DNA of 52,177 nucleotides from IMG/VR virus record IMGVR_UViG_2563366958_000018; one strand, given 5' to 3'. This stretch comes from a virus (Duplodnaviria > Heunggongvirae > Uroviricota > Caudoviricetes). This document shows positions 1 to 51,010 of the stretch, in pieces. Within the stretch, counting starts at the first letter, position 1. Each line of letters begins with the position of its first letter. The notes under the pieces were generated by a model. That model saw only the letters and a program-made list of their open reading frames with translations. It did no database searches and was not told the DNA's origin. A program made the translations under genes and the position numbers.

Positions 1-3000
1 ATGCCTGTCGACTTTCTAACCTCTGACCAAAAACAGAATTACGGTTGTTATGCTGCAGAACCTAATGACGTGCAACTGGCGCGCTATTTTCATCTTGATG
101 AACGGGATCTGGCCTTCATTAACCAACGACGGGGCAAACATAATAGGCTGGGCATTGCGCTTCAGCTCACCACAGCCCGTTTTCTGGGAACATTTCTGAC
201 GGATTTAACTCAGGTTCTGCCTGGTGTTCAACATTTTGTCGCGGTACAGCTTAATATCCACCGTCCAGAAGTTCTCTCCCGCTATGCTGAACGGGACACT
301 ACCCTTAGAGAACATACTGCATTAATTAAGGAATATTACGGCTATCATGAATTTGGTGATTTTCCATGGTCTTTCCGCCTGAAGCGTCTGCTATATACCC
401 GGGCGTGGCTCAGTAATGAGCGACCGGGTCTGATGTTTGATTTTGCCACTGCATGGTTGCTTCAAAATAAGGTATTACTGCCCGGAGCAACCACACTAGT
501 ACGTCTCATCAGTGAAATTCGTGAAAGGGCAAATCAGCGGCTGTGGAAAAAGCTGGCCGCACTGCCGAACAAATGGCAGGCAGCTCAAGTGATGGAGCTT
601 CTGGTCATTCCGGAAGGTCAGCGTGTATCAGCACTGGAACAGTTGAAAAAAGGCCCTGTTACAGTCAGTGGACCTGCGTTTAATGAGGCGCTGGAACGAT
701 ATATCCGATTACGAAGTCTTGAGTTTTCCCGACTGAACTTTTCCGGTCTGCCTGCCATTCAACTGCGTAATCTGGCTCGTTATGCTGGCATGGCGTCGGT
801 AAAATATATCGCTCGAATGCCACAGCAGAGAAAGCTTGCTGCACTTACTGCATTCGTTAAAGCACAGGAAATAACGGCATTAGACGATGCCGTTGATGTG
901 CTTGATATGCTAATTCTGGACATTATCCGCGAAGCAAAGAAAACCGGGCAAAAAAAAAGACTCAGGACACTGAAAGATCTTGATCAGGCCGCATTGTTAC
1001 TGGCGCGGGCATGTGCATTGTTGCTGGATGATAATACAGATGTCCCAGATCTCAGGCAGGTTATCTTCAAGTGCGTACCCAAAAACAGACTGGCAGAATC
1101 TGTAAGCAAGGTTAATGAACTTGCTCGTCCACAGAACAATAATTTCCATGACGAAATGGTTGAGCAGTACGGTCGGGTTAAACGTTTTCTTCCGGCGGTG
1201 TTGCGGGACCTGCATTTCCGTGCGGCACCGGCAGGTGAACATGTACTGGCTGCGATTCATTATCTGGCAGAACTGAATGGTTCGAAAAAGCGCATCCTTG
1301 ATGATGCGCCTGAACATATTATCACCGGTCCCTGGAAACGCCTCGTATACGATGCGGAGGGACGGATACAGCGTGCAGGTTATTCACTATGTTTGCTGGA
1401 ACGCCTTCAGGATGCACTGCGCCGCCGGGACATCTGGCTTGAAAACAGTGATCGCTGGGGAGATCCTCGCGAGAAGTTGTTGCAAGGTGAAGAGTGGCAG
1501 ACTCAGCGTATTCCTGTCTGTCGGGCACTGGGACATCCTGTCGATGGACGTAAAGGTGTGCAACAACTGGCTATTCAGCTGGATGAGACCTGGAAAGCCG
1601 TGGCATCACGATTTGAAAAGAATGCGGAAGTTCATATCTGTAATGAAGGTAAATATCCATCCCTGACTATCAGTTGTCTGGAGAAACAGGAAGAGCCACC
1701 ATCATTGCTTCGTCTAAATAATCGGATCAAACAGCTACTCCCACCGGTAGATTTAACGGAACTGTTACTTGAGATAGATGCCCAGACAGGATTTACACAT
1801 GAGTTTGCGCATGTCAGTGAATCTGGTGCTCGAGCGCAAGATTTGCACATCAGTTTATGTGCGGTATTGATGGCTGAAGCCTGTAATATCGGACTGGAGC
1901 CGCTGATAAAGCACAATATACCAGCACTGACCCGCCATCGGCTCAGTTGGGTGAAACAGAATTACCTTCGTGCAGAAACGCTGGTCAGCGCCAATGCCCG
2001 CCTGGTTGATTTTCAGTCCACACTGGAGCTTGCTGGTCGTTGGGGAGGTGGAGAAGTGGCATCAGCTGACGGCATGCGCTTTGTCACACCAGTGAAGACC
2101 ATCAACTCAGGATCTAACAGAAAATATTTTGGTTCTGGACGAGGCATCACCTGGTATAACTTCGTATCTGATCAGTACTCTGGGTTCCATGGCATTGTGG
2201 TACCCGGTACATTACGGGATTCGATTTTTGTACTGGAAGGACTTCTTGAGCAGCAGACAGGGCTGAATCCAGTTGAAATCATGACAGACACTGCGGGTAG
2301 CAGCGATATTATTTTCGGTCTGTTCTGGCTACTGGGGTATCAGTTTTCCCCCCGGCTTGCCGATGCAGGTGAGGCGGTGTTCTGGCGGGTGAATAAATCG
2401 GCAAACTACGGAGTACTGGATAAGTTGGCCCGAGGATATGCAGATCTGTCAAAAGCGGAGAGTCAGTGGGATGAGATGATGCGAACCGCTGGTTCGCTGA
2501 AGTTGGGTACAATTCATGCGTCAGAACTCATTCGCTCTTTACTGAAAAGCTCGCGCCCATCAGGACTGGCACAGGCAATTATGGAAGTAGGGCGTGTAAA
2601 CAAAACGCTATATCTCCTCAATTATATTGATGATGAAGATTATCGTCGGCGGATCCTGACGCAGCTTAATCGAGGAGAAGGCCGCCACGCTGTGGCTCGT
2701 GCGATTTGTTACGGACAACGCGGAGAGATCAGAAAGCGTTATCGTGAAGGGCAGGAAGATCAACTGGGGGCGCTGGGCCTGGTTACTAATGCAGTGGTTC
2801 TGTGGAACACGCTCTATATGGAGGAAGCGTTGAGCTGGATGCGCCGTAATGGCGAAGAAATTATAGATGAAGATATCGCTCGGCTATCTCCCCTGATGCA
2901 CGGGCATATCAATATGTTGGGCCATTATACATTCACGTTGCCAGAGGATATTTTAAAAGGGGAACTGAGAGCTCTAAATTTAAATATAAACAACGAATTA

Positions 3001-3009
3001 TCTCCTTAA
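1..3009 (+). CDS. tnpA: Tn3-family transposase TnpA (Tn1000/gamma-delta-like), 1002 aa
   Basis: Full-length ORF starting MPVDFLT; conserved Tn3-family TnpA blocks (RPGLMFD, GGGEVASADGMRFV, LSPLMHGHINMLGHY); stop codon lies inside the terminal IR as in Tn3-family elements. Confidence 0.9.
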   Translation: MPVDFLTSDQKQNYGCYAAEPNDVQLARYFHLDERDLAFINQRRGKHNRLGIALQLTTARFLGTFLTDLTQVLPGVQHFVAVQLNIHRPEVLSRYAERDTTLREHTALIKEYYGYHEFGDFPWSFRLKRLLYTRAWLSNERPGLMFDFATAWLLQNKVLLPGATTLVRLISEIRERANQRLWKKLAALPNKWQAAQVMELLVIPEGQRVSALEQLKKGPVTVSGPAFNEALERYIRLRSLEFSRLNFSGLPAIQLRNLARYAGMASVKYIARMPQQRKLAALTAFVKAQEITALDDAVDVLDMLILDIIREAKKTGQKKRLRTLKDLDQAALLLARACALLLDDNTDVPDLRQVIFKCVPKNRLAESVSKVNELARPQNNNFHDEMVEQYGRVKRFLPAVLRDLHFRAAPAGEHVLAAIHYLAELNGSKKRILDDAPEHIITGPWKRLVYDAEGRIQRAGYSLCLLERLQDALRRRDIWLENSDRWGDPREKLLQGEEWQTQRIPVCRALGHPVDGRKGVQQLAIQLDETWKAVASRFEKNAEVHICNEGKYPSLTISCLEKQEEPPSLLRLNNRIKQLLPPVDLTELLLEIDAQTGFTHEFAHVSESGARAQDLHISLCAVLMAEACNIGLEPLIKHNIPALTRHRLSWVKQNYLRAETLVSANARLVDFQSTLELAGRWGGGEVASADGMRFVTPVKTINSGSNRKYFGSGRGITWYNFVSDQYSGFHGIVVPGTLRDSIFVLEGLLEQQTGLNPVEIMTDTAGSSDIIFGLFWLLGYQFSPRLADAGEAVFWRVNKSANYGVLDKLARGYADLSKAESQWDEMMRTAGSLKLGTIHASELIRSLLKSSRPSGLAQAIMEVGRVNKTLYLLNYIDDEDYRRRILTQLNRGEGRHAVARAICYGQRGEIRKRYREGQEDQLGALGLVTNAVVLWNTLYMEEALSWMRRNGEEIIDEDIARLSPLMHGHINMLGHYTFTLPEDILKGELRALNLNINNELSP

Positions 3010-3042
3010 CGTACGTTTTCGTTCCATTGGCCCTCAAACCCC
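3005..3042. repeat. 38-bp Tn3-family terminal inverted repeat (Tn1000-like)
   Basis: CTTAACGTACGTTTTCGTTCCATTGGCCCTCAAACCCC is the reverse complement of a GGGGTTTGAGGGCCAATGGAACGAAAACGTACGTTAAG-type IR; overlaps the tnpA stop. Confidence 0.85.
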
Positions 3043-3843
3043 GATCTTTACGAGGTTGACGTAATAGTCATGGGGTAAGTTTGTCATGGTGATAGTTCCC
3101 TTAAAGGTTAAGGATACTCACCACCGTCTGGTTCCAATCATTGGGTGGTGAGACGTACAGGGTTGGAACTACCGGTCACCATGGAATCCGGCGAGTCTTA
3201 CGACTCCCCCGCACGCCCCACCATAATTTGGGTGTAGCAGTGCTTTACGCATAAAAAAACCGCTAACGCGGTATGCGCCATGATGATTATCGGGGTTCCA
3301 ATCCCGACCGTAGATTTTGCTACGGCTCGGAAAGTGTCCACCAATGGCGCATTCATGTCAATACGGCGGGATTTTAACAGAGACAACCACATAGCGTGGG
3401 TTTATTGGTAGGCAGAAACAAAAAAACCGCCCTATTGAGGACGGTTCTTTCGTGCTGATCGGATTCGCGGTCCTTTCAGCATAACGTCGTTGTATAAACA
3501 ACCACGCAAGCACAAGCAGCAAGTTAATTTTACCCAAAAGGTAATAATAGTCCACTATTATGCTTCAAAAAATTGTGGTTCTTGTTGTGCCTGCAAACTC
3601 ACAGATTGTGGGTAGGTTACTGATTTTGTGAAAATAAACGAGTTTTTTCGTTTAATTTCTTTCCTATTACTAATCTTAAAATAATCGTAAAATACCTGTG
3701 GACCTTCCCGCCGATTCGCACCCGGGCACCGACTTTAGGGGAGGATTCTCCGTTGCCGTACATGCAAGCACAAGCAGCCGTGCTTGCTCTCGCGTTGTTT
3801 TCGTCGGTGGGGATGCCGTGAAACGGCCTGTAAGGGCCATACA

Positions 3844-3966
3844 ATGAAAAAATACTGTATGTGTATTTTTATCGTTGTTACTGGGGCTTTGTTTACGCCA
3901 CATGGGGAGGGTTGGAAGATTACTGATAACGCTCTGAATGTGACGATAAACATTAGCAGCAAGTAG
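3844..3966 (+). CDS. Small hydrophobic ORF (40 aa, MKKYCMCIFIVVTGALF...), hypothetical
   Basis: ATG with weak upstream purine tract; single hydrophobic segment; followed directly by a strong hairpin plus T-run. Confidence 0.2.
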   Translation: MKKYCMCIFIVVTGALFTPHGEGWKITDNALNVTINISSK

Positions 3967-3971
3967 CGATT

Positions 3972-3995
3972 AGGCCCCTTCGGGGGCCTTTTTTA
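3972..3995 (+). terminator. Rho-independent terminator
   Basis: AGGCCCC-TTCG-GGGGCCT stem followed by TTTTTT. Confidence 0.5.
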
Positions 3996-12839: not shown

Positions 12840-13180
12840 GCTGTAGTGAGAATCCATGCGATTACGAGCAGTATTCAGATATTCAGAGCGGGTAATGAAG
12901 CACATACAACCGAAAACATGGCAGAAACTGGACTCTATGGGAGCTAAGTTGGAGAAGATTACTCAACTTAAGCAGTGGCATATCGGCGAATATTATGGAA
13001 GTCCTGGTCGGGATGTTCGGTTGGTAAAAAGTTGAACATTGTTTTTTTATTGATCGATTAACCACGATATGAAGGTTTTTTTATGGAAAAACCTTGTTTT
13101 AGATGGTAACTGGGTGTAGTGTTTCATTTAACGTAGTAAAACTGCGTTAAGCGATTACCGCGTAATTTGTTGCTTTATGA

Positions 13181-13211
13181 AGCCCTGCCTTTTTCGGCGG
13201 GGCTTTTTTTT
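13181..13211 (+). terminator. Rho-independent terminator immediately upstream of the lysis cassette
   Basis: AGCCCTGCC-TTTTTC-GGCGGGGCT stem then a run of eight T. Confidence 0.5.
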
Positions 13212-13224
13212 AACGAGGATTTCA

Positions 13225-15000: not shown

Positions 15001-15076
15001 GGCCCCTTAGCTTAGTGGTTAGAGCAGGCGACTCATAATCGCACGGTCATCGGTTCAAATCCGGTAGGGGCCACCA
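15001..15076 (+). tRNA. tRNA with CAU anticodon, most similar to tRNA-Ile2 (ileX-type, lysidine-dependent AUA decoder); could also be a Met tRNA
   Basis: Cloverleaf folds: acceptor GGCCCCT/AGGGGCC, anticodon loop CUCAUAA, T-loop TTCAAAT, 3' CCA encoded. Confidence 0.85.
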
Positions 15077-15383: not shown

Positions 15384-15971
15384 ATGGAGGCAATTGCATT
15401 GTTTAATCTGATTTATGCAGATCCCCCCTGGGAATACAAAGATAAGTGTAAGGATGGGAATCGTGGAGCTGGTTTTAAGTATCCAACGATGAAAGCTGAG
15501 GATATTGCTCGTATTCCTGTCTGGCAGCTTGCTAATCCTGAATCGTGTTTGTTGGCCATGTGGTGGGTTCCGACTCAGCCAGAAGAAGCGTTGCTGGTGG
15601 TGAAAGCATGGGGATTCAGGCTTATGACCATGAAGGGCTTCACATGGAACAAATGTGGTAGCCGACAACCAGATAAGCTGGTGATGGGGATGGGGCATAT
15701 GACTCGTGCAAACAGTGAAGATTGCTTGTTTGCGGTAAAAGGCAAATTGCCGACCCGCCTTGATGCGGGGATCATTCAGTCGTTTACATCGCCTCGTCTG
15801 GAGCATTCTCGGAAGCCTGATGTGGTTCGTGACAAGCTGGTAAGGCTGTTAGGTGATGTTCCTCGTATTGAGCTGTTTGCTCGCGGTGATTTACCTGATG
15901 GTTGGCATGGCTGGGGCAACCAGTGCAATGGAGGTATCCAGTTGCATGATGCTCTCTGGCAAGTGGCATAG
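15384..15971 (+). CDS. MT-A70-family N6-adenine DNA methyltransferase (orphan)
   Basis: Catalytic DPPW motif (IYADPPWEY), 195 aa; no adjacent restriction endonuclease. Confidence 0.8.
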   Translation: MEAIALFNLIYADPPWEYKDKCKDGNRGAGFKYPTMKAEDIARIPVWQLANPESCLLAMWWVPTQPEEALLVVKAWGFRLMTMKGFTWNKCGSRQPDKLVMGMGHMTRANSEDCLFAVKGKLPTRLDAGIIQSFTSPRLEHSRKPDVVRDKLVRLLGDVPRIELFARGDLPDGWHGWGNQCNGGIQLHDALWQVA

Positions 15972-17954: not shown

Positions 17955-18578
17955 ATGACAAAACATCTTAATGTGGTTTCTTTACCACTTTCTGTGTTGA
18001 TTGGTTATGAAAAGAACGCTCGCACACACTCCGTGGAGCAGGTAGATCAGATTATTGCCAGCATACAGGAGTACGGATGGACTAATCCGATCCTGATAGA
18101 CGAGAACAACGTTGTAATTGCTGGTCATGGTCGAATTGCTGCGGCCACTCAGTTGGGGATGGATGATGTTCCCTGCATTGTTCTGGCTGGGCTAACGGAG
18201 AATCAGAAGAAGGCATATCGTCTGGCCGACAACCGTATTCCGCTGAATGCTGGTTGGGATGAAGAGTTGTTAAGCGCGGAGCTTGCAGATCTTGCGGCCG
18301 ATGATTTTGCTCTGGACTCAATTGGTTTTACTCAGCGCGAACTGGATAACTTATTGAGTGCGGCGGTCTACGATGACACAGAGGGTATGGATATCCCATT
18401 TGAGAAGGATGAGGCCAAATCAGGCGTAAAAGTTCAGTACCTGTCATTTGGAGGTCATAAAATCCCGGCAACGGATGAGGAAGCGGATCGTTTTGACTGC
18501 GCGGTGTCTCGTTATGTTGATGATAATGGCAGCTATATCGGATTTGTATCCGCATTGCTGGCTGGGGAGGTGTGCTGA
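17955..18578 (+). CDS. ParB/Srx-like nuclease-domain protein (207 aa)
   Basis: N-terminal ParB-type fold with GHGR arginine motif (VIAGHGRIAAA); paralogue of 21244-21834. Confidence 0.7.
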   Translation: MTKHLNVVSLPLSVLIGYEKNARTHSVEQVDQIIASIQEYGWTNPILIDENNVVIAGHGRIAAATQLGMDDVPCIVLAGLTENQKKAYRLADNRIPLNAGWDEELLSAELADLAADDFALDSIGFTQRELDNLLSAAVYDDTEGMDIPFEKDEAKSGVKVQYLSFGGHKIPATDEEADRFDCAVSRYVDDNGSYIGFVSALLAGEVC

Positions 18579-19951
18579 TGCTTCACCTCAATTACGACAT
18601 AACGCACCTACGCGGCGCGGAATATAACCCGCGTTTTATCGGTGAGGATGATCTTGCGAGGCTGGCGGAAAGCGTCAGGGAGCTGGGGCTTGTGAAGCCA
18701 TTGATAGTGCGCGGCGATTTGCTGGTGGCGGGACACCAAAGGACGAAGGCGCTACGTAAGTTGGGAATAACGCGTGCTGCGGTGTATGTGTTGCCCTGTG
18801 AAACGACGGTATACGACGAAGTACGGTTTAACCAACTGCATAACGGAACGGATTTTGATAGCGGAGATGAGCGTTGCAGGGTGTCCGGTCTGGAAGATAA
18901 GCATGGTTTTGTTCAGGTATCGGCAAGCCAGATCTCAGGCAATATGCGCGCGAAAATGGCATATGTTCGAAAGAACATAGCGGAACTGGTTATCAAGTAT
19001 GGTCCGTGGGGTGGTTGTGTTGCTACTCAGTCTGGTGAGGTTATTCACTGTGCTCAGTATGCATTAGCAGCGAAAATGACGCGCACACCGCTAACGGTGT
19101 TTGTGATCCCTGATGTTGAGAAGGAAAAATACCAAAGTTATCTGAATAAAACTTATGGTGTATTTGAGTATTCTCATCTGGAGAAAACAACATACATCCA
19201 GACGTATGCGCAGCTTATGCGGTTGCGTAATGGTGGCAGCCTGAAATCAAATCTGTATGAGTCGTTGATCCTCCCGATCGTTGCCAAGACGCCAAGAGGA
19301 ATTGATTTTGGTTCGGGGCAGGGAGACTACGCGCGAATGCTCAGGGCAAAGGGATATAACCTGCATGATCTTGAGCTTTTTCGCCGTAAGGGCGCTGGAA
19401 ACACTCTGGATAGGGCTGCAACAAACCGAATGATTGATACGCTGGTGGACGACTTAAAAACGCGAGGGCGTTACGACTACGTGATTTGCGATAGCGTTTT
19501 GAACTCGGTCGATAGTGTCGAGGCTGAATGGTCCGTTCTGACGGTTCTGAAAGGCCTGTGTAAAGCTGGTGGGTCAATATTCTTTTCTGGTCGTAGCCGT
19601 GGAGAGCTGGAAACAGTCCTGAAGCAAACACAAGCGGCGAGTTCCAAAAGCCGGCTTTATTTTATTGATCATAACGGTTTTACCGCGTTGTACCGGAAGG
19701 GGCACTGGTTTTACCAGAAGTTTCACTCTGATGATGAAGTGAAGCAGTTGTGTCGTGTACATGGTTTCAGGATTAAGCGGTCAATATTCAACTGTAATAG
19801 CTGGTATTTGCACGTCATTAACGATGATTCCCTTAGTTGGGCGAGTCTGGAGAAAGCTGTTCGTTTTGAGTTTGAGTTGCCGTTGCCTGGTGGTTCAACA
19901 ATCGGACGATCTGATGATGTGCTGGCGGCTTTCCGGCCGTTGATTAAGTAG
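18578..19951 (+). CDS. ParB/Srx-like N-terminal domain fused to a class I SAM-dependent methyltransferase domain
   Basis: N-terminal LVAGHQRTKA ParB motif; C-terminal motif I GIDFGSGQGDYA and acidic post-I motif (YVICDSVLN); no DPPY/NPPY motif seen. Confidence 0.6.
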   Translation: MLHLNYDITHLRGAEYNPRFIGEDDLARLAESVRELGLVKPLIVRGDLLVAGHQRTKALRKLGITRAAVYVLPCETTVYDEVRFNQLHNGTDFDSGDERCRVSGLEDKHGFVQVSASQISGNMRAKMAYVRKNIAELVIKYGPWGGCVATQSGEVIHCAQYALAAKMTRTPLTVFVIPDVEKEKYQSYLNKTYGVFEYSHLEKTTYIQTYAQLMRLRNGGSLKSNLYESLILPIVAKTPRGIDFGSGQGDYARMLRAKGYNLHDLELFRRKGAGNTLDRAATNRMIDTLVDDLKTRGRYDYVICDSVLNSVDSVEAEWSVLTVLKGLCKAGGSIFFSGRSRGELETVLKQTQAASSKSRLYFIDHNGFTALYRKGHWFYQKFHSDDEVKQLCRVHGFRIKRSIFNCNSWYLHVINDDSLSWASLEKAVRFEFELPLPGGSTIGRSDDVLAAFRPLIK

Positions 19952-19967: not shown

Positions 19968-20687
19968 GTGGCTGACAGAATTGAGATAAAGATGGATTTT
20001 TCTTCTCAGGATATTCAACGACAACTCCAGCGCCTTGAAGAACGCGAATTGCCGTTCGCAATGGCGCTTGCGGCAACCAGAACGGCAAAGGCTTCTCAGG
20101 CTGCGATTAAGAATGAAATTAATCGGGTATTTGACAGGCCCACGCCGTGGATTCAGAACTCTACTTACGTTTTGGCCGCAAAGAAGAGTGATCCTACAGC
20201 CATTGTGTATGCTCGTGAATGGGGAGGAACGCCAGCCCCTGTAACGTTGACTCCGCAAATCGAAGGTGGCCAACGACAGTACAAACGCTCAGAAGGGGCG
20301 CTAAGGGCTGGTGGATATTTGCCTAACGGCTGGCAGCTTGCTCCTGGTCCCGGCGCAAAGCTGGACAAATACGGGAATATTTCGCGGGGGCAATTACAGC
20401 AGGTCTTATCTGGCCTAAGAGTTCAGCGAGATGCGCATCAAAATCGCCGTCAGGGCAAGCCTACGGAGTTTTTTGTTGTTCGACCTGGTACAAGTAACCC
20501 GCTTCAACCAGGCGTCTGGCAGCGCGTTGGGCGGCGTCCTACGTTGATCCTTACGTTTATCCAGCAACCTAACTATTCGCAGCGTCTTGATTGGCATGGC
20601 GTGGCGCTGCGTGCTGGTGAGGATGCGTTTGCTGATGAAGTCACAAAGGCTATTGATGACATTCTTTCTAAGACCTTCTCTCGTTAA
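19968..20687 (+). CDS. Hypothetical protein (239 aa, GTG start)
   Basis: AGGAGG RBS upstream. Confidence 0.45.
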   Translation: MADRIEIKMDFSSQDIQRQLQRLEERELPFAMALAATRTAKASQAAIKNEINRVFDRPTPWIQNSTYVLAAKKSDPTAIVYAREWGGTPAPVTLTPQIEGGQRQYKRSEGALRAGGYLPNGWQLAPGPGAKLDKYGNISRGQLQQVLSGLRVQRDAHQNRRQGKPTEFFVVRPGTSNPLQPGVWQRVGRRPTLILTFIQQPNYSQRLDWHGVALRAGEDAFADEVTKAIDDILSKTFSR

Positions 20688-20879
20688 TCATCGTGTGGTT
20701 GATGGTGTTGTTATGCAGAGTGTATTCACTGTGTTCTGTAGCGTCGCTCGCTGGCTGTCTGTGGGGGAGCACGAGCATCGTTTCATCGTCCGGCAGAATT
20801 GGGTCCTTCTGGCCAAAAGCGTTGGATGCGGGTCATTCGAACCCCGATATTCGGCTAGCTAAACGTGAAAAAAGTTAGG

Positions 20880-21243
20880 TTAAAAGTTGCGGTAAAAGAA
20901 ATTTACTCATCTCATTGAAAAATATCGGGAAAACGTGATTTTTTCTGTATTTGTGCTGGTAAAAAGAAAGTGGAAAATTTTCTTTTAGATCATCAAGATA
21001 CGCGCAGATCTTTAACCAATGTGATGTTGTTCTGATAAAAATCGTTATAAATCATGCAAATACATCCAATCTTTTAACCAAAACACCATCGCAAGATCCT
21101 TTTTACTTATAAAAACTTAATAAAATCAGATAATTATGCTGGTTTGTGTGATTTTTCATGAGTAAAAAGATCGTCATTTTTCTCTTTTAGTATCAATAAG
21201 TTAAACAGTTTTCTTTAACCTGTTGTGTTATGGCGGTTAAAAA
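20880..21243. promoter_or_regulatory. AT-rich intergenic region upstream of the packaging genes; candidate cos/pac and late regulatory region
   Basis: Three TCTTTAACC-type repeats (about 21009, 21070, 21212) and four AGATC sites in about 200 bp. Confidence 0.3.
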
Positions 21244-21834
21244 ATGGCTCTAAAAATCGAATATTTACCAGTCGGTAAGTTGCTCAGATATGCCAAAAAT
21301 TCACGGACTCATTCAGATGAGCAAGTTGAACAGTTGGTGAACAGTATCCGTGAGTTCGGTTTCACTAATCCTGTGCTGATCGATGAAAAGAATGAACTGA
21401 TTGCGGGGCATGGGCGGCTTGCAGCAGCCGAAATTCTGGAAATGGATAAAGTTCCGGCGATTCGGTTGAGTAACCTTTCTGAAAAACAGAAGAAGGCTTA
21501 CAGGATTGCAGATAACAAGCTGGCCTTAAATGCTGGCTGGGATATGCAGCTTCTGGCCGAAGAAGTCAAAGAGTTAATGGATGATGATTTTGATATTGAT
21601 CTGCTTGGGTTTAATGATGCAGAGCTTGACGAAATGTTAAGCGATGAACAGCCGCAGGAAGAAGACGATAATTCTTCCCCTGTTGTTCAAATTAAGTACC
21701 TGGCTATTGATAAAGAACGTATTCCCGCGACGGATATGGAAATTGCATTGTTGCTGGATGTTTATCGTCAGTACCACGACGCGCATGAAACGCATGAGGG
21801 ATTTGTTCAGTATCTTGCTAATGGTTGCAAGTAA
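21244..21834 (+). CDS. ParB/Srx-like nuclease-domain protein immediately upstream of terminase small subunit
   Basis: LIAGHGRLAAA motif; clear paralogue of 17955-18578. Confidence 0.7.
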   Translation: MALKIEYLPVGKLLRYAKNSRTHSDEQVEQLVNSIREFGFTNPVLIDEKNELIAGHGRLAAAEILEMDKVPAIRLSNLSEKQKKAYRIADNKLALNAGWDMQLLAEEVKELMDDDFDIDLLGFNDAELDEMLSDEQPQEEDDNSSPVVQIKYLAIDKERIPATDMEIALLLDVYRQYHDAHETHEGFVQYLANGCK

Positions 21835-22385
21835 TGGCCATCGTCAGTAAGTCAGAGTTTGCCCGCCGGAAAGGTATTTCTCCGGCAATGGTTACGAAGC
21901 TCTGTTGTTCCGGTCGCATTCCAGTGCTGAAAAGCGGCAAGCTGGATTTTGATAAAGCCAGTGCGGCTTATGAAGCGAGCCGACAGGTTGGTCGTGAGGT
22001 ATCTGCTGAAAATGGAAAAAGAGGGCATGGGATATCTTCGGAACAACCAGAGTTACCCGCTGATGATGCCGGATTAGCTGGTGGTACTTCCGGTGTTGCG
22101 GTGCAATTCAACAAGGCTAAGACCGCAGAAAAAATTTATCAGGCAAAGCTGAAACGCCTTGAATTTGAAGAAAAGGAAGGCTCTCTCATCGCTAAAGATG
22201 CGGTCAGGGATGATGCATTTCTGGCAGCTAATGAATTGCGTAGCCGCTTATTTAGTATTGCTCCAAGAGCAGCTCCCCGTTGTGAAGGCAAAACAGCCAG
22301 GGAGATCGAGCGCATTATTGAAGACGAGATTAATTTTGCGCTTCAGGCGCTCCAGGAATCCCGATTTATTAAGCAGGAAGAATAA
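21834..22385 (+). CDS. Terminase small subunit (Nu1-like)
   Basis: N-terminal HTH (SKSEFARRKGISPAMVTKL) and position directly upstream of the large subunit; TAATG coupling. Confidence 0.6.
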   Translation: MAIVSKSEFARRKGISPAMVTKLCCSGRIPVLKSGKLDFDKASAAYEASRQVGREVSAENGKRGHGISSEQPELPADDAGLAGGTSGVAVQFNKAKTAEKIYQAKLKRLEFEEKEGSLIAKDAVRDDAFLAANELRSRLFSIAPRAAPRCEGKTAREIERIIEDEINFALQALQESRFIKQEE

Positions 22386-49952: not shown

Positions 49953-50213
49953 ATGACGGGTTACGAATTGAAATTATGGCGTCGTGGGATGAACTGGACG
50001 CAGGAGCGAGCCGCCGAAGAGTTTGGGATATCGTTGGCTACATATAAGCGATATGAGAAGGGTGAGCCGCCGAGGGTCATTGAGATGGCCATTCGCGTTC
50101 TGTCGTTTGACGATATGGTTAAGGATCTTTCACACCTTGATAAAGATGTGATTCTGTTAAGGCTGCAAACCCTTGTATGGGAAAAGGTTAAAGTGTCGTC
50201 AGAATTGGAATAA
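49953..50213 (+). CDS. XRE-family HTH transcriptional regulator (86 aa)
   Basis: HTH (MNWTQERAAEEFGISLATYKRYEKG); GAGGA RBS. Confidence 0.55.
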   Translation: MTGYELKLWRRGMNWTQERAAEEFGISLATYKRYEKGEPPRVIEMAIRVLSFDDMVKDLSHLDKDVILLRLQTLVWEKVKVSSELE

Positions 50214-50275
50214 GGGATCAAATGATCCTTTACGGATCGTTTTATGGTGGTGTAATGTAAGCGCCAGAAAGACAA

Positions 50276-50300
50276 AAACCGCCTTGCCGGGCGGTTTTCA
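50276..50300 (+). terminator. Rho-independent terminator
   Basis: CCGCC-TTGCCG-GGCGG then TTTTCAG. Confidence 0.45.
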
Positions 50301-51010
50301 GTCTGAAATTTAAATCTTGCTTGGTAGGCTGGATTTAAAAAGACACCTCTTGATTGGGGCGGCTTTCTTGCGTCTAAAGATAATCAAATCTTTTTGCGCC
50401 TGCAACCCCTTTTTTACTGGTGCCCATTTCAGACTCACGCTCGCGTCGTTGTCTTTGCCACTTCGTTGGGTTCGGTGTTTTTGGGCGAAGTGGCGCGCGG
50501 GTATGCGTACAAGGGGAAAGTGTGCTGACGCAAGCCAGGAACAGCGATCTAAACTAAGTCGAGTCTGAGAAAGGCAGGAGTGCGACAACTCGCCTGTGCT
50601 CTATGAGCAGAAGAAGGTATATCAGACGACCAATGGCATGATTGTGGGCCACAGGGCGCACACGGCGGCGAAGCATTGGAAACAATGTGGAGCTATCTGG
50701 TGGCATGAGTTCCGGTACTCGATCTCGAGCTTTTTTTGATGCTTTTGAGAAGGGGCCGGAACTCCGGTAAAGGGCACCCTGTATGGGGGGAGGGGGGGTT
50801 GTGTCTGAAGGGTGGTTATCGGTTATGGTGGAATTATGATGCGTAGAAAAGCGAGTTTGCTGCAAGCTATTGGGTCCATTATTTCTTTGTTTCCGGCAGT
50901 TGATCATTTTCGTCATATGGCGACGCGTTCCAGTATGGGCTTGGCGCGTGATGCTGACGCTATTCGAAAGGATTTTCAGAAAGTCTCTGGCGTTGATAAG
51001 AGAGAAAAGA

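Follow-up and report, generated by a model that had tools for sequence, protein, structure and literature searches.

A non-coding stretch of about 360 bp (positions 20880–21243) lies ahead of the packaging genes in a 52,177-nucleotide Caudoviricetes record (IMG/VR IMGVR_UViG_2563366958_000018; the whole of this DNA is referred to here as the window), and an initial annotation, made from the letters alone, proposed it as a cos/pac and late regulatory region. This raises the questions of where the DNA is cut for packaging, which protein reads the repeats in the stretch and whether the GATC sites clustered there take part. The element proved to be an Escherichia coli phage-plasmid of about 47–50 kb, and we give a probability of roughly 70% to its being packaged by a lambda-type cohesive-end mechanism, the flagged stretch being essentially its cosB. 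As had been described, the stretch is AT-rich and non-coding: its G+C content is 28.8%, as against 51.5% and 43.1% in the flanking genes and 44.8% in the window, and 20879–21243 holds no open reading frame (ORF) of 40 or more amino acids on either strand. It belongs to an intergenic gap that extends from the stop codon of the upstream gene (20687) to the ATG of the next gene (21244).

Position of the cohesive-end site

In phage lambda, cos is composed of cosQ, cosN and cosB, and the 7 bp cosQ is highly conserved among lambda-like phages (PMC4669245). Comparison of the gap with related phages brought out the following elements to the left of, or abutting, the flagged stretch:

20801–20807, + strand: cosQ-like heptamer GGGTCCT, homologous to that of lambda; candidate packaging-ending signal
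20831–20842, + strand: cosN, with the 12-nt cohesive end GGTCATTCGAAC, placed from the genome ends of relatives
20843–20877, + strand: conserved right flank of cosN (CCCG..TTCG.CTAGCT.AACG..AAAAGTTA)

The position of cosN follows from the ends of deposited genomes. The window is ~98% identical to the Yersinia phages vB_YpM_39, vB_YpM_41 and vB_YpM_44 and to two partial E. coli phage records. The deposited sequences of vB_YpM_41 and vB_YpM_39 have 20831 as their first base (reading GGTCATTCGAAC CCCGAT...) and 20830 as their last, and that of vB_YpM_44 starts at 20843 and terminates in GGTCATTCGAAC, an offset of exactly 12 nt relative to the other two. More distant relatives are the Vibrio phages X29, phi 2, vB_VpaM_XM1 (XM1), PVP-XSN and R20L (proposed 'Weiviridae'), whose small terminases (TerS) are 42–48% identical to that of the window. 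For XM1, PVP-XSN and R20L the records are linear, with GGTGCTCGCGAC CCCG at the start and ...GAGCG at the end, and XM1 also terminates in GGTGCTCGCGAC plus one A, so that the 12-mer stands at both ends, as is expected from end-repair (fill-in) of a 5' overhang. The X29 record is split one base from the right nick, and defined genome ends have been published for this phage (PMC5690320). For Acinetobacter phage HFM1 (TerS 35% identical), a GenBank feature gives a PhageTerm-identified 5' cohesive sequence of 11 nt in the context GCG/GGACCGAGGAC/CCC, matching the frame GCG/GG..AC/CCC. All these Yersinia, Vibrio and HFM1 end sequences align with window positions 20797–20862, and the 12-mer GGTCATTCGAAC is invariant in 24 IMG/VR relatives.

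By this comparison cosQ is located at 20801–20807 and cosN, with a cohesive end of 12 nt, at 20831–20842. Nicks before 20831 on the top strand and after 20842 on the bottom strand would leave a 5' overhang, a polarity taken from the relatives XM1 and HFM1. The heptamer is kept in enterobacterial IMG/VR relatives despite a differing upstream gene, and in the Vibrio phages, with 22–23 nt between cosQ and cosN; one relative (L122) carries a variant in its place. The right flank 20843–20877 is common to the enterobacterial and Vibrio lineages and can partly be aligned with the left end of lambda. The initial annotation had considered the cleavage site impossible to locate, which did not hold, as comparison puts the cut at 20831–20842, some 40–50 bp to the left of the flagged stretch. 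Its wider proposal was right in that the intergenic region is a cos region, but the interval it had marked misses the cosQ–cosN core just to the left. Cohesive-end packaging, which it had predicted, is supported both by the ends of the relatives at cosN and by the lambda-type cosQ and cosN. A resemblance of GGGTCATTCGAACCC to a tRNA T-arm or attachment site was discarded, ARAGORN and Rfam being blank at 20.8 kb; it reflects the partial two-fold symmetry of cosN.

The repeat family and its candidate reader

Three TCTTTAACC-like repeats had been pointed out in the stretch, and they were recovered as two exact copies (21009–21017 and 21212–21220), the only ones in the 52 kb window, and a third copy at 21070–21079 with one additional T. 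Their number is above chance: none of 2000 dinucleotide-preserving shuffles of 20843–21243 gave two exact copies or four copies with at most one mismatch. A motif-blind test gave GGTAAAAAG, the opposite-strand form of this motif, as the top-repeated 9-mer, with five copies, a count reached by 0 of 300 shuffles (mean 2.6, maximum 4). Read on the reverse strand, TCTTTAACC belongs to a larger family, GGTWAAAAGA, which has nine sites (S1–S9) in both orientations between 20878 and 21244; with at most one mismatch allowed, five of the ten matches in the window fall within the 367 bp of the cos stretch. The sites, together with two matches to the consensus of integration host factor (IHF), are as follows, class A denoting the window and its close relatives:

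20878–20887, forward: S1, GGTTAAAAGT, at +48 from the nick; invariant in all class-A lineages
20891–20900, forward: S2, GGTAAAAGAA, at +61 from the nick; with S1 the pair nearest cosN
20958–20967, forward: S3, GGTAAAAAGA; position conserved, kept in vB_YpM_44
21008–21017, reverse: S4, ATCTTTAACC; first of the three repeats originally pointed out, conserved as T.TTT.ACC
21070–21079, reverse: S5, TCTTTTAACC; second of these repeats
21098–21107, reverse: S6, CCTTTTTACT; left side of an inverted module
21124–21136: IHF-consensus match AATCAGATAATTA, between S6 and S7
21161–21170, forward: S7, AGTAAAAAGA; completes the inverted module 21098–21170
21191–21203, + strand: second IHF-consensus match TATCAATAAGTTA, conserved in part only
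21211–21220, reverse: S8, TTCTTTAACC; third of the original repeats, conserved
21235–21244, forward: S9, GGTTAAAAAA; least conserved site

The S6–S7 module is a 31-nt imperfect inverted repeat with arms at 21099–21129 and 21139–21169, and S8 and S9 form an inverted pair (inverted repeat I11) adjoining the start codon of the next gene. Hardly any indels are needed to align the gap among the five class-A lineages; invariant columns make up 60–85% over cosQ, cosN and S1 and 15–40% at 20969–21068, with islands of conservation remaining at the S sites and at the IHF match 21124–21136, and the sites keep their positions and orientations. The WATCARNNNNTTR match at 21124–21136, a consensus match only, is kept by every class-A lineage and, of the three in class B (see below), by one. 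A 90 bp deletion in vB_YpM_44 (20968–21057) removes S4 and two GATC sites, which suggests that this stretch is a dispensable part of the array. Elsewhere in the window, a lone strong copy of the cos repeat, GGTAAAAAGT, lies in the gap that precedes the lysis genes, at 13023.

The genes that follow the array are:

21244–21834, + strand: ParB_N-domain protein of 196 amino acids (PF02195, 3.8e-8; phrog_620), the first gene past cos
21825–22385, + strand: TerS (phrog_57, 3e-41), residues 5–39 of which match a Cox-like helix-turn-helix
22391–24247, + strand: large terminase (TerL) of the gpA family (PF05876, 7e-76; PF20454, 1e-84)

The two Pfam matches of TerL confirmed the gpA-family assignment made at the outset, and its gene is followed by those of a head-tail adaptor and a lambda-type portal.

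The arrays of more distant lineages were compared with the predicted recognition helices of their TerS proteins. Class B comprises three lineages (L120–L123, one from Yersinia proxima) with TerS 52–57% identical to that of the window; their gap is ~510 bp and its sites have the positions and orientations seen in the window. In these lineages S1, S2, S3, S4, S5 and S8 have all switched to GGTTAACAA (TTGTTAACC on the other strand), the individual forms being GGTTAACAA and AGTTAACAA for S1 and S2, GGTTAACAAA for S3, TTGTTAACC for S4, and TTTGTTAACC for both S5 and S8. The predicted recognition helix is constant inside each motif class and different among the classes:

Class A (window and close relatives): motif GGTWAAAAGA, recognition helix ISPAMVTKL
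Class B (L120–L123): motif GGTTAACAA, recognition helix LSRAA(I/V)TKL
Class C (Vibrio phages): motif GGTTAACAC, recognition helix RSHVWV(K/S)KL

As the repeats switch together and track the class of TerS, a phage-encoded, lineage-specific reader is implied. TerS would be the most economical candidate for this reader, and the S sites are a candidate cosB. On the grounds of their conservation and their co-variation with TerS, the repeats can be regarded as plausible terminase recognition sites.

The ParB_N-domain protein encoded at 21244–21834 might bind the repeats instead of TerS, for example as an accessory cos-binding or nicking factor. Enterobacterial and Vibrio lineages alike have its gene between cos and terS, and its sequence also varies by motif class. 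Two more ParB_N-domain genes are situated just upstream of cos, so that three bracket it (17955–18578, 18572–19951 and 21244–21834), that at 18572–19951 being fused to a methyltransferase domain. However, the gene, whose equivalent position is filled in the Vibrio relatives, is missing from many lineages that share cosN, and these retain arrays of their own repeats at the same offset, from ~+47 (+47, +59), adjoining a downstream phrog_57 TerS; they include CCTGACA at +47, +59, +76 and +92, and also GCTTAACA, GTTGACA and GGTCAC. Moreover, conservation of the ParB_N domain is high from one motif class to another, and a helix-turn-helix was not detected in this protein. TerS does have one at its N terminus, with a recognition helix that follows the motif class. 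We consider this protein quite unlikely to be the reader.

An AlphaFold model of TerS showed a confident N-terminal domain (pLDDT about 88) with a strand-helix-turn-helix-wing arrangement. Foldseek matched the model best to winged helices of the excisionase/MerR type and to chain B of 6hn7, which accompanies a paper on the redirection of helper-phage packaging by E. coli islands; all of these matches were weak (E > 0.5). TerS showed no similarity to lambda Nu1 by BLASTP (E = 0.19) and no Pfam match, and neither TerS nor TerL had significant sequence matches in PDB. The locus L029/L094 (IMG/VR 2880350357_000007), with a reported 45% TerS identity and the same cos, was considered as a natural test of specificity and set aside, its terS being frameshifted; it is probably a decaying prophage with an intact cos, alongside an intact copy in the same genome.

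In the mechanism we favour, the layout would comprise cosQ (20801–20807), a 23-nt spacer, cosN (20831–20842) and a long cosB (~20843–21243), in which S1–S3 point rightward and S4–S6 leftward, followed by the IHF-like site, S7 (right), S8 (left) and S9 (right). TerS, the presumed reader, would bind the S sites through its N-terminal winged helix-turn-helix, and bending at the S6/S7 module may be provided by host IHF. The TerS–DNA complex so formed would anchor TerL, the presumed nicking enzyme, on cosN, where this gpA-family protein would introduce staggered nicks. Packaging would then run rightward and stop at the next cosQ–cosN on the concatemer. Within this scheme, what comes directly from comparison is where cosQ and cosN lie, the 12-nt length of the cohesive end, and the fact that the repeats are conserved and switch together; the binding by TerS, the participation of IHF and the action of S3–S9 in packaging are its conjectural parts.

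Several observations weigh against this interpretation. The site of cosN was placed from the records of relatives. Those of the Yersinia phages are labelled circular and might in principle start where an editor chose to begin them, which is unlikely given an offset of exactly 12 nt and independent linear records that agree. Binding by TerS is deduced for a protein that has no sequence similarity to Nu1 and whose fold matches are weak. The motif and its position weight matrix were derived from the very same region, S9 and the IHF-like matches are conserved in part only, and S4 appears dispensable, provided that the deposited vB_YpM_44 sequence is accurate and the phage viable. Finally, the proposed cosB, with nine sites in ~360 bp, compares with three sites in 120 bp in lambda, and the Vibrio relatives manage with ~100 bp; S3–S9 may be otherwise employed.

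Other roles for the distal array

The distal part of the stretch (~20950–21243) could mainly serve transcriptional control of the parB-like/terS/terL operon and leave only S1 and S2 for packaging, the repeats then being operators for a phage regulator, or for TerS on its own operon. The distal array is ~270 bp longer than in the Vibrio relatives, which need merely ~100 bp from cosN to the first gene; furthermore, the S8/S9 pair adjoins a start codon, the S6-IHF-S7 module looks like a bent operator, and the copy at 13023 is an additional strong match upstream of genes. A scan of 20400–21500, however, found no sigma-70-like promoter, where 2.2 were expected from shuffles, nor a + strand terminator that would require a new promoter; a single terminator-like match was found on the opposite strand. 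The + strand carries every gene from the early region through the tail fibres, and a terminator of the kind typical of antitermination precedes the holin gene. In addition, the distal sites have the motif of S1 and S2 and switch with them, which argues that one protein reads the proximal and the distal sites. Transcriptional control as the chief function of the distal part is in our view rather unlikely, and is in any case compatible with the cosB explanation; a regulatory function beside packaging, in line with the late regulatory region of the initial annotation, may exist. The terminator before the holin gene is a strong intrinsic one (13160–13215; GCCCTGCC-loop-GGCGGGGC, then T8) just 5' of that gene in a 379 bp gap. 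This layout recalls lambda pR'-tR' and suggests that the late genes are under antitermination or read-through.

A second set of alternatives arises from the nature of the element. The region was found in 72 of 5426 complete E. coli genomes (~1.3%) and was plasmid-borne, on plasmids of about 47–50 kb, in 72 of 73 places. One of them, pECO-b75 (L117), encodes RepA, ParA, a RelE/ParE toxin–antitoxin pair, an XRE repressor, lysis genes and an MT-A70 methylase together with a full head and contractile-tail gene set, and this combination of plasmid genes and complete head and tail genes identifies the element as a phage-plasmid. The near-identical genome has also been isolated as plaque-forming Yersinia pestis phages; a literature search found no paper describing vB_YpM_39, vB_YpM_41 or vB_YpM_44. 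On a plasmid, an AT-rich array with reiterated motifs, IHF-like sites and GATCs might be a replication origin with iterons or a partition centromere. However, RepA (~45.7–46.7 kb of the window) and ParA (~4.5–5.2 kb) lie ~25 kb and ~16 kb from the cos region, each beside non-coding DNA of its own, homologous arrays adjoin cosN in non-plasmid phages and prophages, and the motif tracks TerS. An origin or centromere at this place is very improbable.

Apart from the cos region, window positions 1–3042 had no match to pECO-b75, and the remainder of the window is collinear with it; the notion that the window is a wrapped copy of a 47.5 kb plasmid circle was rejected. The pSLy3 phage-plasmid group, considered as kin, is SSU5-like and unrelated. 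In the immunity region, Rfam matches were obtained to C4 antisense RNA (3141–3228, – strand), isrK (3253–3326, – strand) and ryfA (3698–3994, + strand), which suggests that an antirepressor is under antisense control of the P1/P7 kind. The tRNA at 15001–15076 (anticodon CAT) is tRNA-Met according to ARAGORN and tRNA-Ile in the RefSeq annotation of a near-identical plasmid.

The clustered GATC sites had been put forward, with a phage-encoded adenine methyltransferase, as reminiscent of the methylation-regulated packaging at P1 pac, in which methylation would gate cleavage. The observations themselves were correct: four AGATC sites start at 20987, 21006, 21094 and 21168 (GATC at 20988, 21007, 21095 and 21169), a span of 182 bp, and an MT-A70 methyltransferase gene is present at 15384–15971, in addition to the ParB_N–methylase fusion. 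The density of GATC is ~4.6 times the local expectation (0.86 sites) and was reached in 16 of 2000 shuffles, and two of the sites symmetrically flank the S6-IHF-S7 module. In the window as a whole the cluster is unremarkable, since one other place (50051–50310, four GATCs within 190 bp) is equally dense. For three of the four GATCs the explanation lies in the repeat itself, whose 3' tail they form (GGTWAAAAGATC). Conservation speaks against the idea as well: GATC 20988 is AGATA in vB_YpM_41, 21007 is AGAAC in vB_YpM_39, both are deleted in vB_YpM_44 and absent from another class-A lineage, and 21095 and 21169 are each lost in some lineages. P1 packages DNA by a headful mechanism that employs PacA and PacB. 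Inside pacA, the pac cut is flanked by seven TGATCA/G hexamers (PMC10028697), whereas all four GATCs of the stretch are AGATC with no such hexamer among them, and they lie 157–338 bp from the nick. The gpA-type terminase and the defined ends of the relatives likewise differ from the PacA/PacB system. Methylation control as in P1 was consequently not borne out, and we regard it as extremely improbable. P1 pac does share with the window an IHF-like site and several GATCs in the packaging region, and P1 too has a plasmid prophage.

A further idea, itself unlikely, is that the distal half of the expanded cosB (S4–S6, the S6-IHF-S7 hairpin with a GATC in each arm, and S8/S9) does more than recruit terminase. 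If so, TerS might, for example, repress or time the expression of the parB-like, terS and terL genes in the plasmid state, or replicated concatemers might be favoured in terminase loading through Dam hemimethylation of the GATCs at S6/S7; either role would link plasmid maintenance to packaging.

Relation to lambda and spread of the cosQ–cosN core

The heptamer GGGTCCT was reportedly recognized as cosQ, the packaging-termination signal, by Wieczorek and Feiss in 2001. Set side by side, the two sites read:

lambda (joined ends): GGGTCCT-N23-GGGCGGCGACCT-CGCGGGTTTTCGCTA, the nicks bracketing GGGCGGCGACCT
window: GGGTCCT-N23-GGTCATTCGAAC-CCCGATATTCGGCTA, the nicks bracketing GGTCATTCGAAC

The cosQ heptamers are identical and end 23 nt before the left nick in both. 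CG dinucleotides flank the lambda nicks, and lambda cosB has the IHF site I1 flanked by the TerS sites R3 and R2, plus a third TerS site, R1 (PMC4669245). The window likewise has CG before the left nick, a probable 12-nt 5'-protruding end (the polarity again as judged from relatives), a gpA-family TerL and a putative recognition region with repeats on the terminase-gene side, and its S6-IHF-S7 inverted pair recalls R3-I1-R2. Furthermore, a shared nicking core combined with lineage-specific cosB and TerS is the situation described for lambda, 21 and N15 (PMC4669245). In contrast, GGTCATTCGAAC agrees with GGGCGGCGACCT in just 4 of its 12 positions, the dinucleotide at the right flank is CC and not CG, TerS (phrog_57) resembles Nu1 weakly and in its N-terminal fold class alone, the number of sites and the length of cosB are larger, and the element has a ParB_N-domain gene between cosB and terS, a plasmid prophage and a contractile tail. 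Feiss et al. (2015) required of lambda-like phages a significant identity of the cohesive end to GGGCGGCGACCT (PMC4669245). With 4 of 12 positions matching, the cos of the window by comparison has lambda-type architecture and falls outside the narrow lambda cohesive-end group.

The Vibrio phages have a homologous cosQ and cosN (GGGTCCT, then GCG/GGTGCTCGCGAC/CCCG), the same order of cos, ParB-like gene, TerS and TerL with about 100–140 bp from cos to the first gene, and a repeat array (GGTTAACAC) starting at about +47. They differ from the window in having five repeats in a single orientation within ~100 bp, no long AT-rich extension, and another motif and TerS recognition helix. The papers on these Vibrio phages do not describe the cos site, and that on XM1 is silent on the genome ends.

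The element most likely has an ordinary lambda-type cos architecture in an uncharacterised phage-plasmid family, and no new principle is involved. Its interest lies in a packaging-site map (cut, overhang, and candidate motif with variants) for a family carried by more than one in a hundred complete E. coli genomes and infectious on Yersinia pestis, which can be used for setting genome start points, for cosmid-like or transducing vectors, and for predicting which relatives cross-package. The lambda cosQ–cosN core, moreover, reaches beyond lambdoid siphoviruses to myovirus phage-plasmids, Vibrio phages and many proteobacterial prophages, each lineage combining the conserved nicking core with a TerS/cosB code of its own.

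The extent of this spread was determined using a pattern consisting of cosQ, a gap of 19–24 nt and the cosN frame (TTGGGTCCT...GGGTNNTNNNNACCCC); GGGTCCT being part of the pattern, its presence in the loci found is not independent evidence. The pattern occurred in at least 80 viral contigs, with 63 distinct sequences among the matches listed, and among these the commonest cohesive ends were GGTAATTCGCAC, GGTAATTCGAAC and GGTAATTCGGAC. Again among the viral matches listed, 43 distinct loci extend 3 kb or more past the site, and ~39 of these have a gpA-type TerL there; in lineages lacking the ParB-like gene TerL starts ~450–1000 bp past the cos site. A stricter pattern that included the right flank of cosN, in which one base is variable, had retrieved 4 viral contigs only and was superseded, and a search of genome contigs with a TerS alignment gave no confirmed relatives.

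In bacterial genomes 70 loci (L128–L197) matched the cosQ–cosN pattern, spread across Alpha-, Beta- and Gammaproteobacteria. As phmmer detected TerL after the signature at just 7 of 39 of these loci, the association of signature and terminase is claimed for the viral contigs only. Many Rhodobacteraceae chromosomes (e.g. L170, L174, L164 and L154) have cosQ–cosN followed by a GGGTTGTTGTTGTT-type repeat. At several of these loci no ORF of large-terminase size was found within 4.5 kb downstream, and the Rhodobacteraceae cos loci of this kind may be cos-carrying satellites or decayed prophages.

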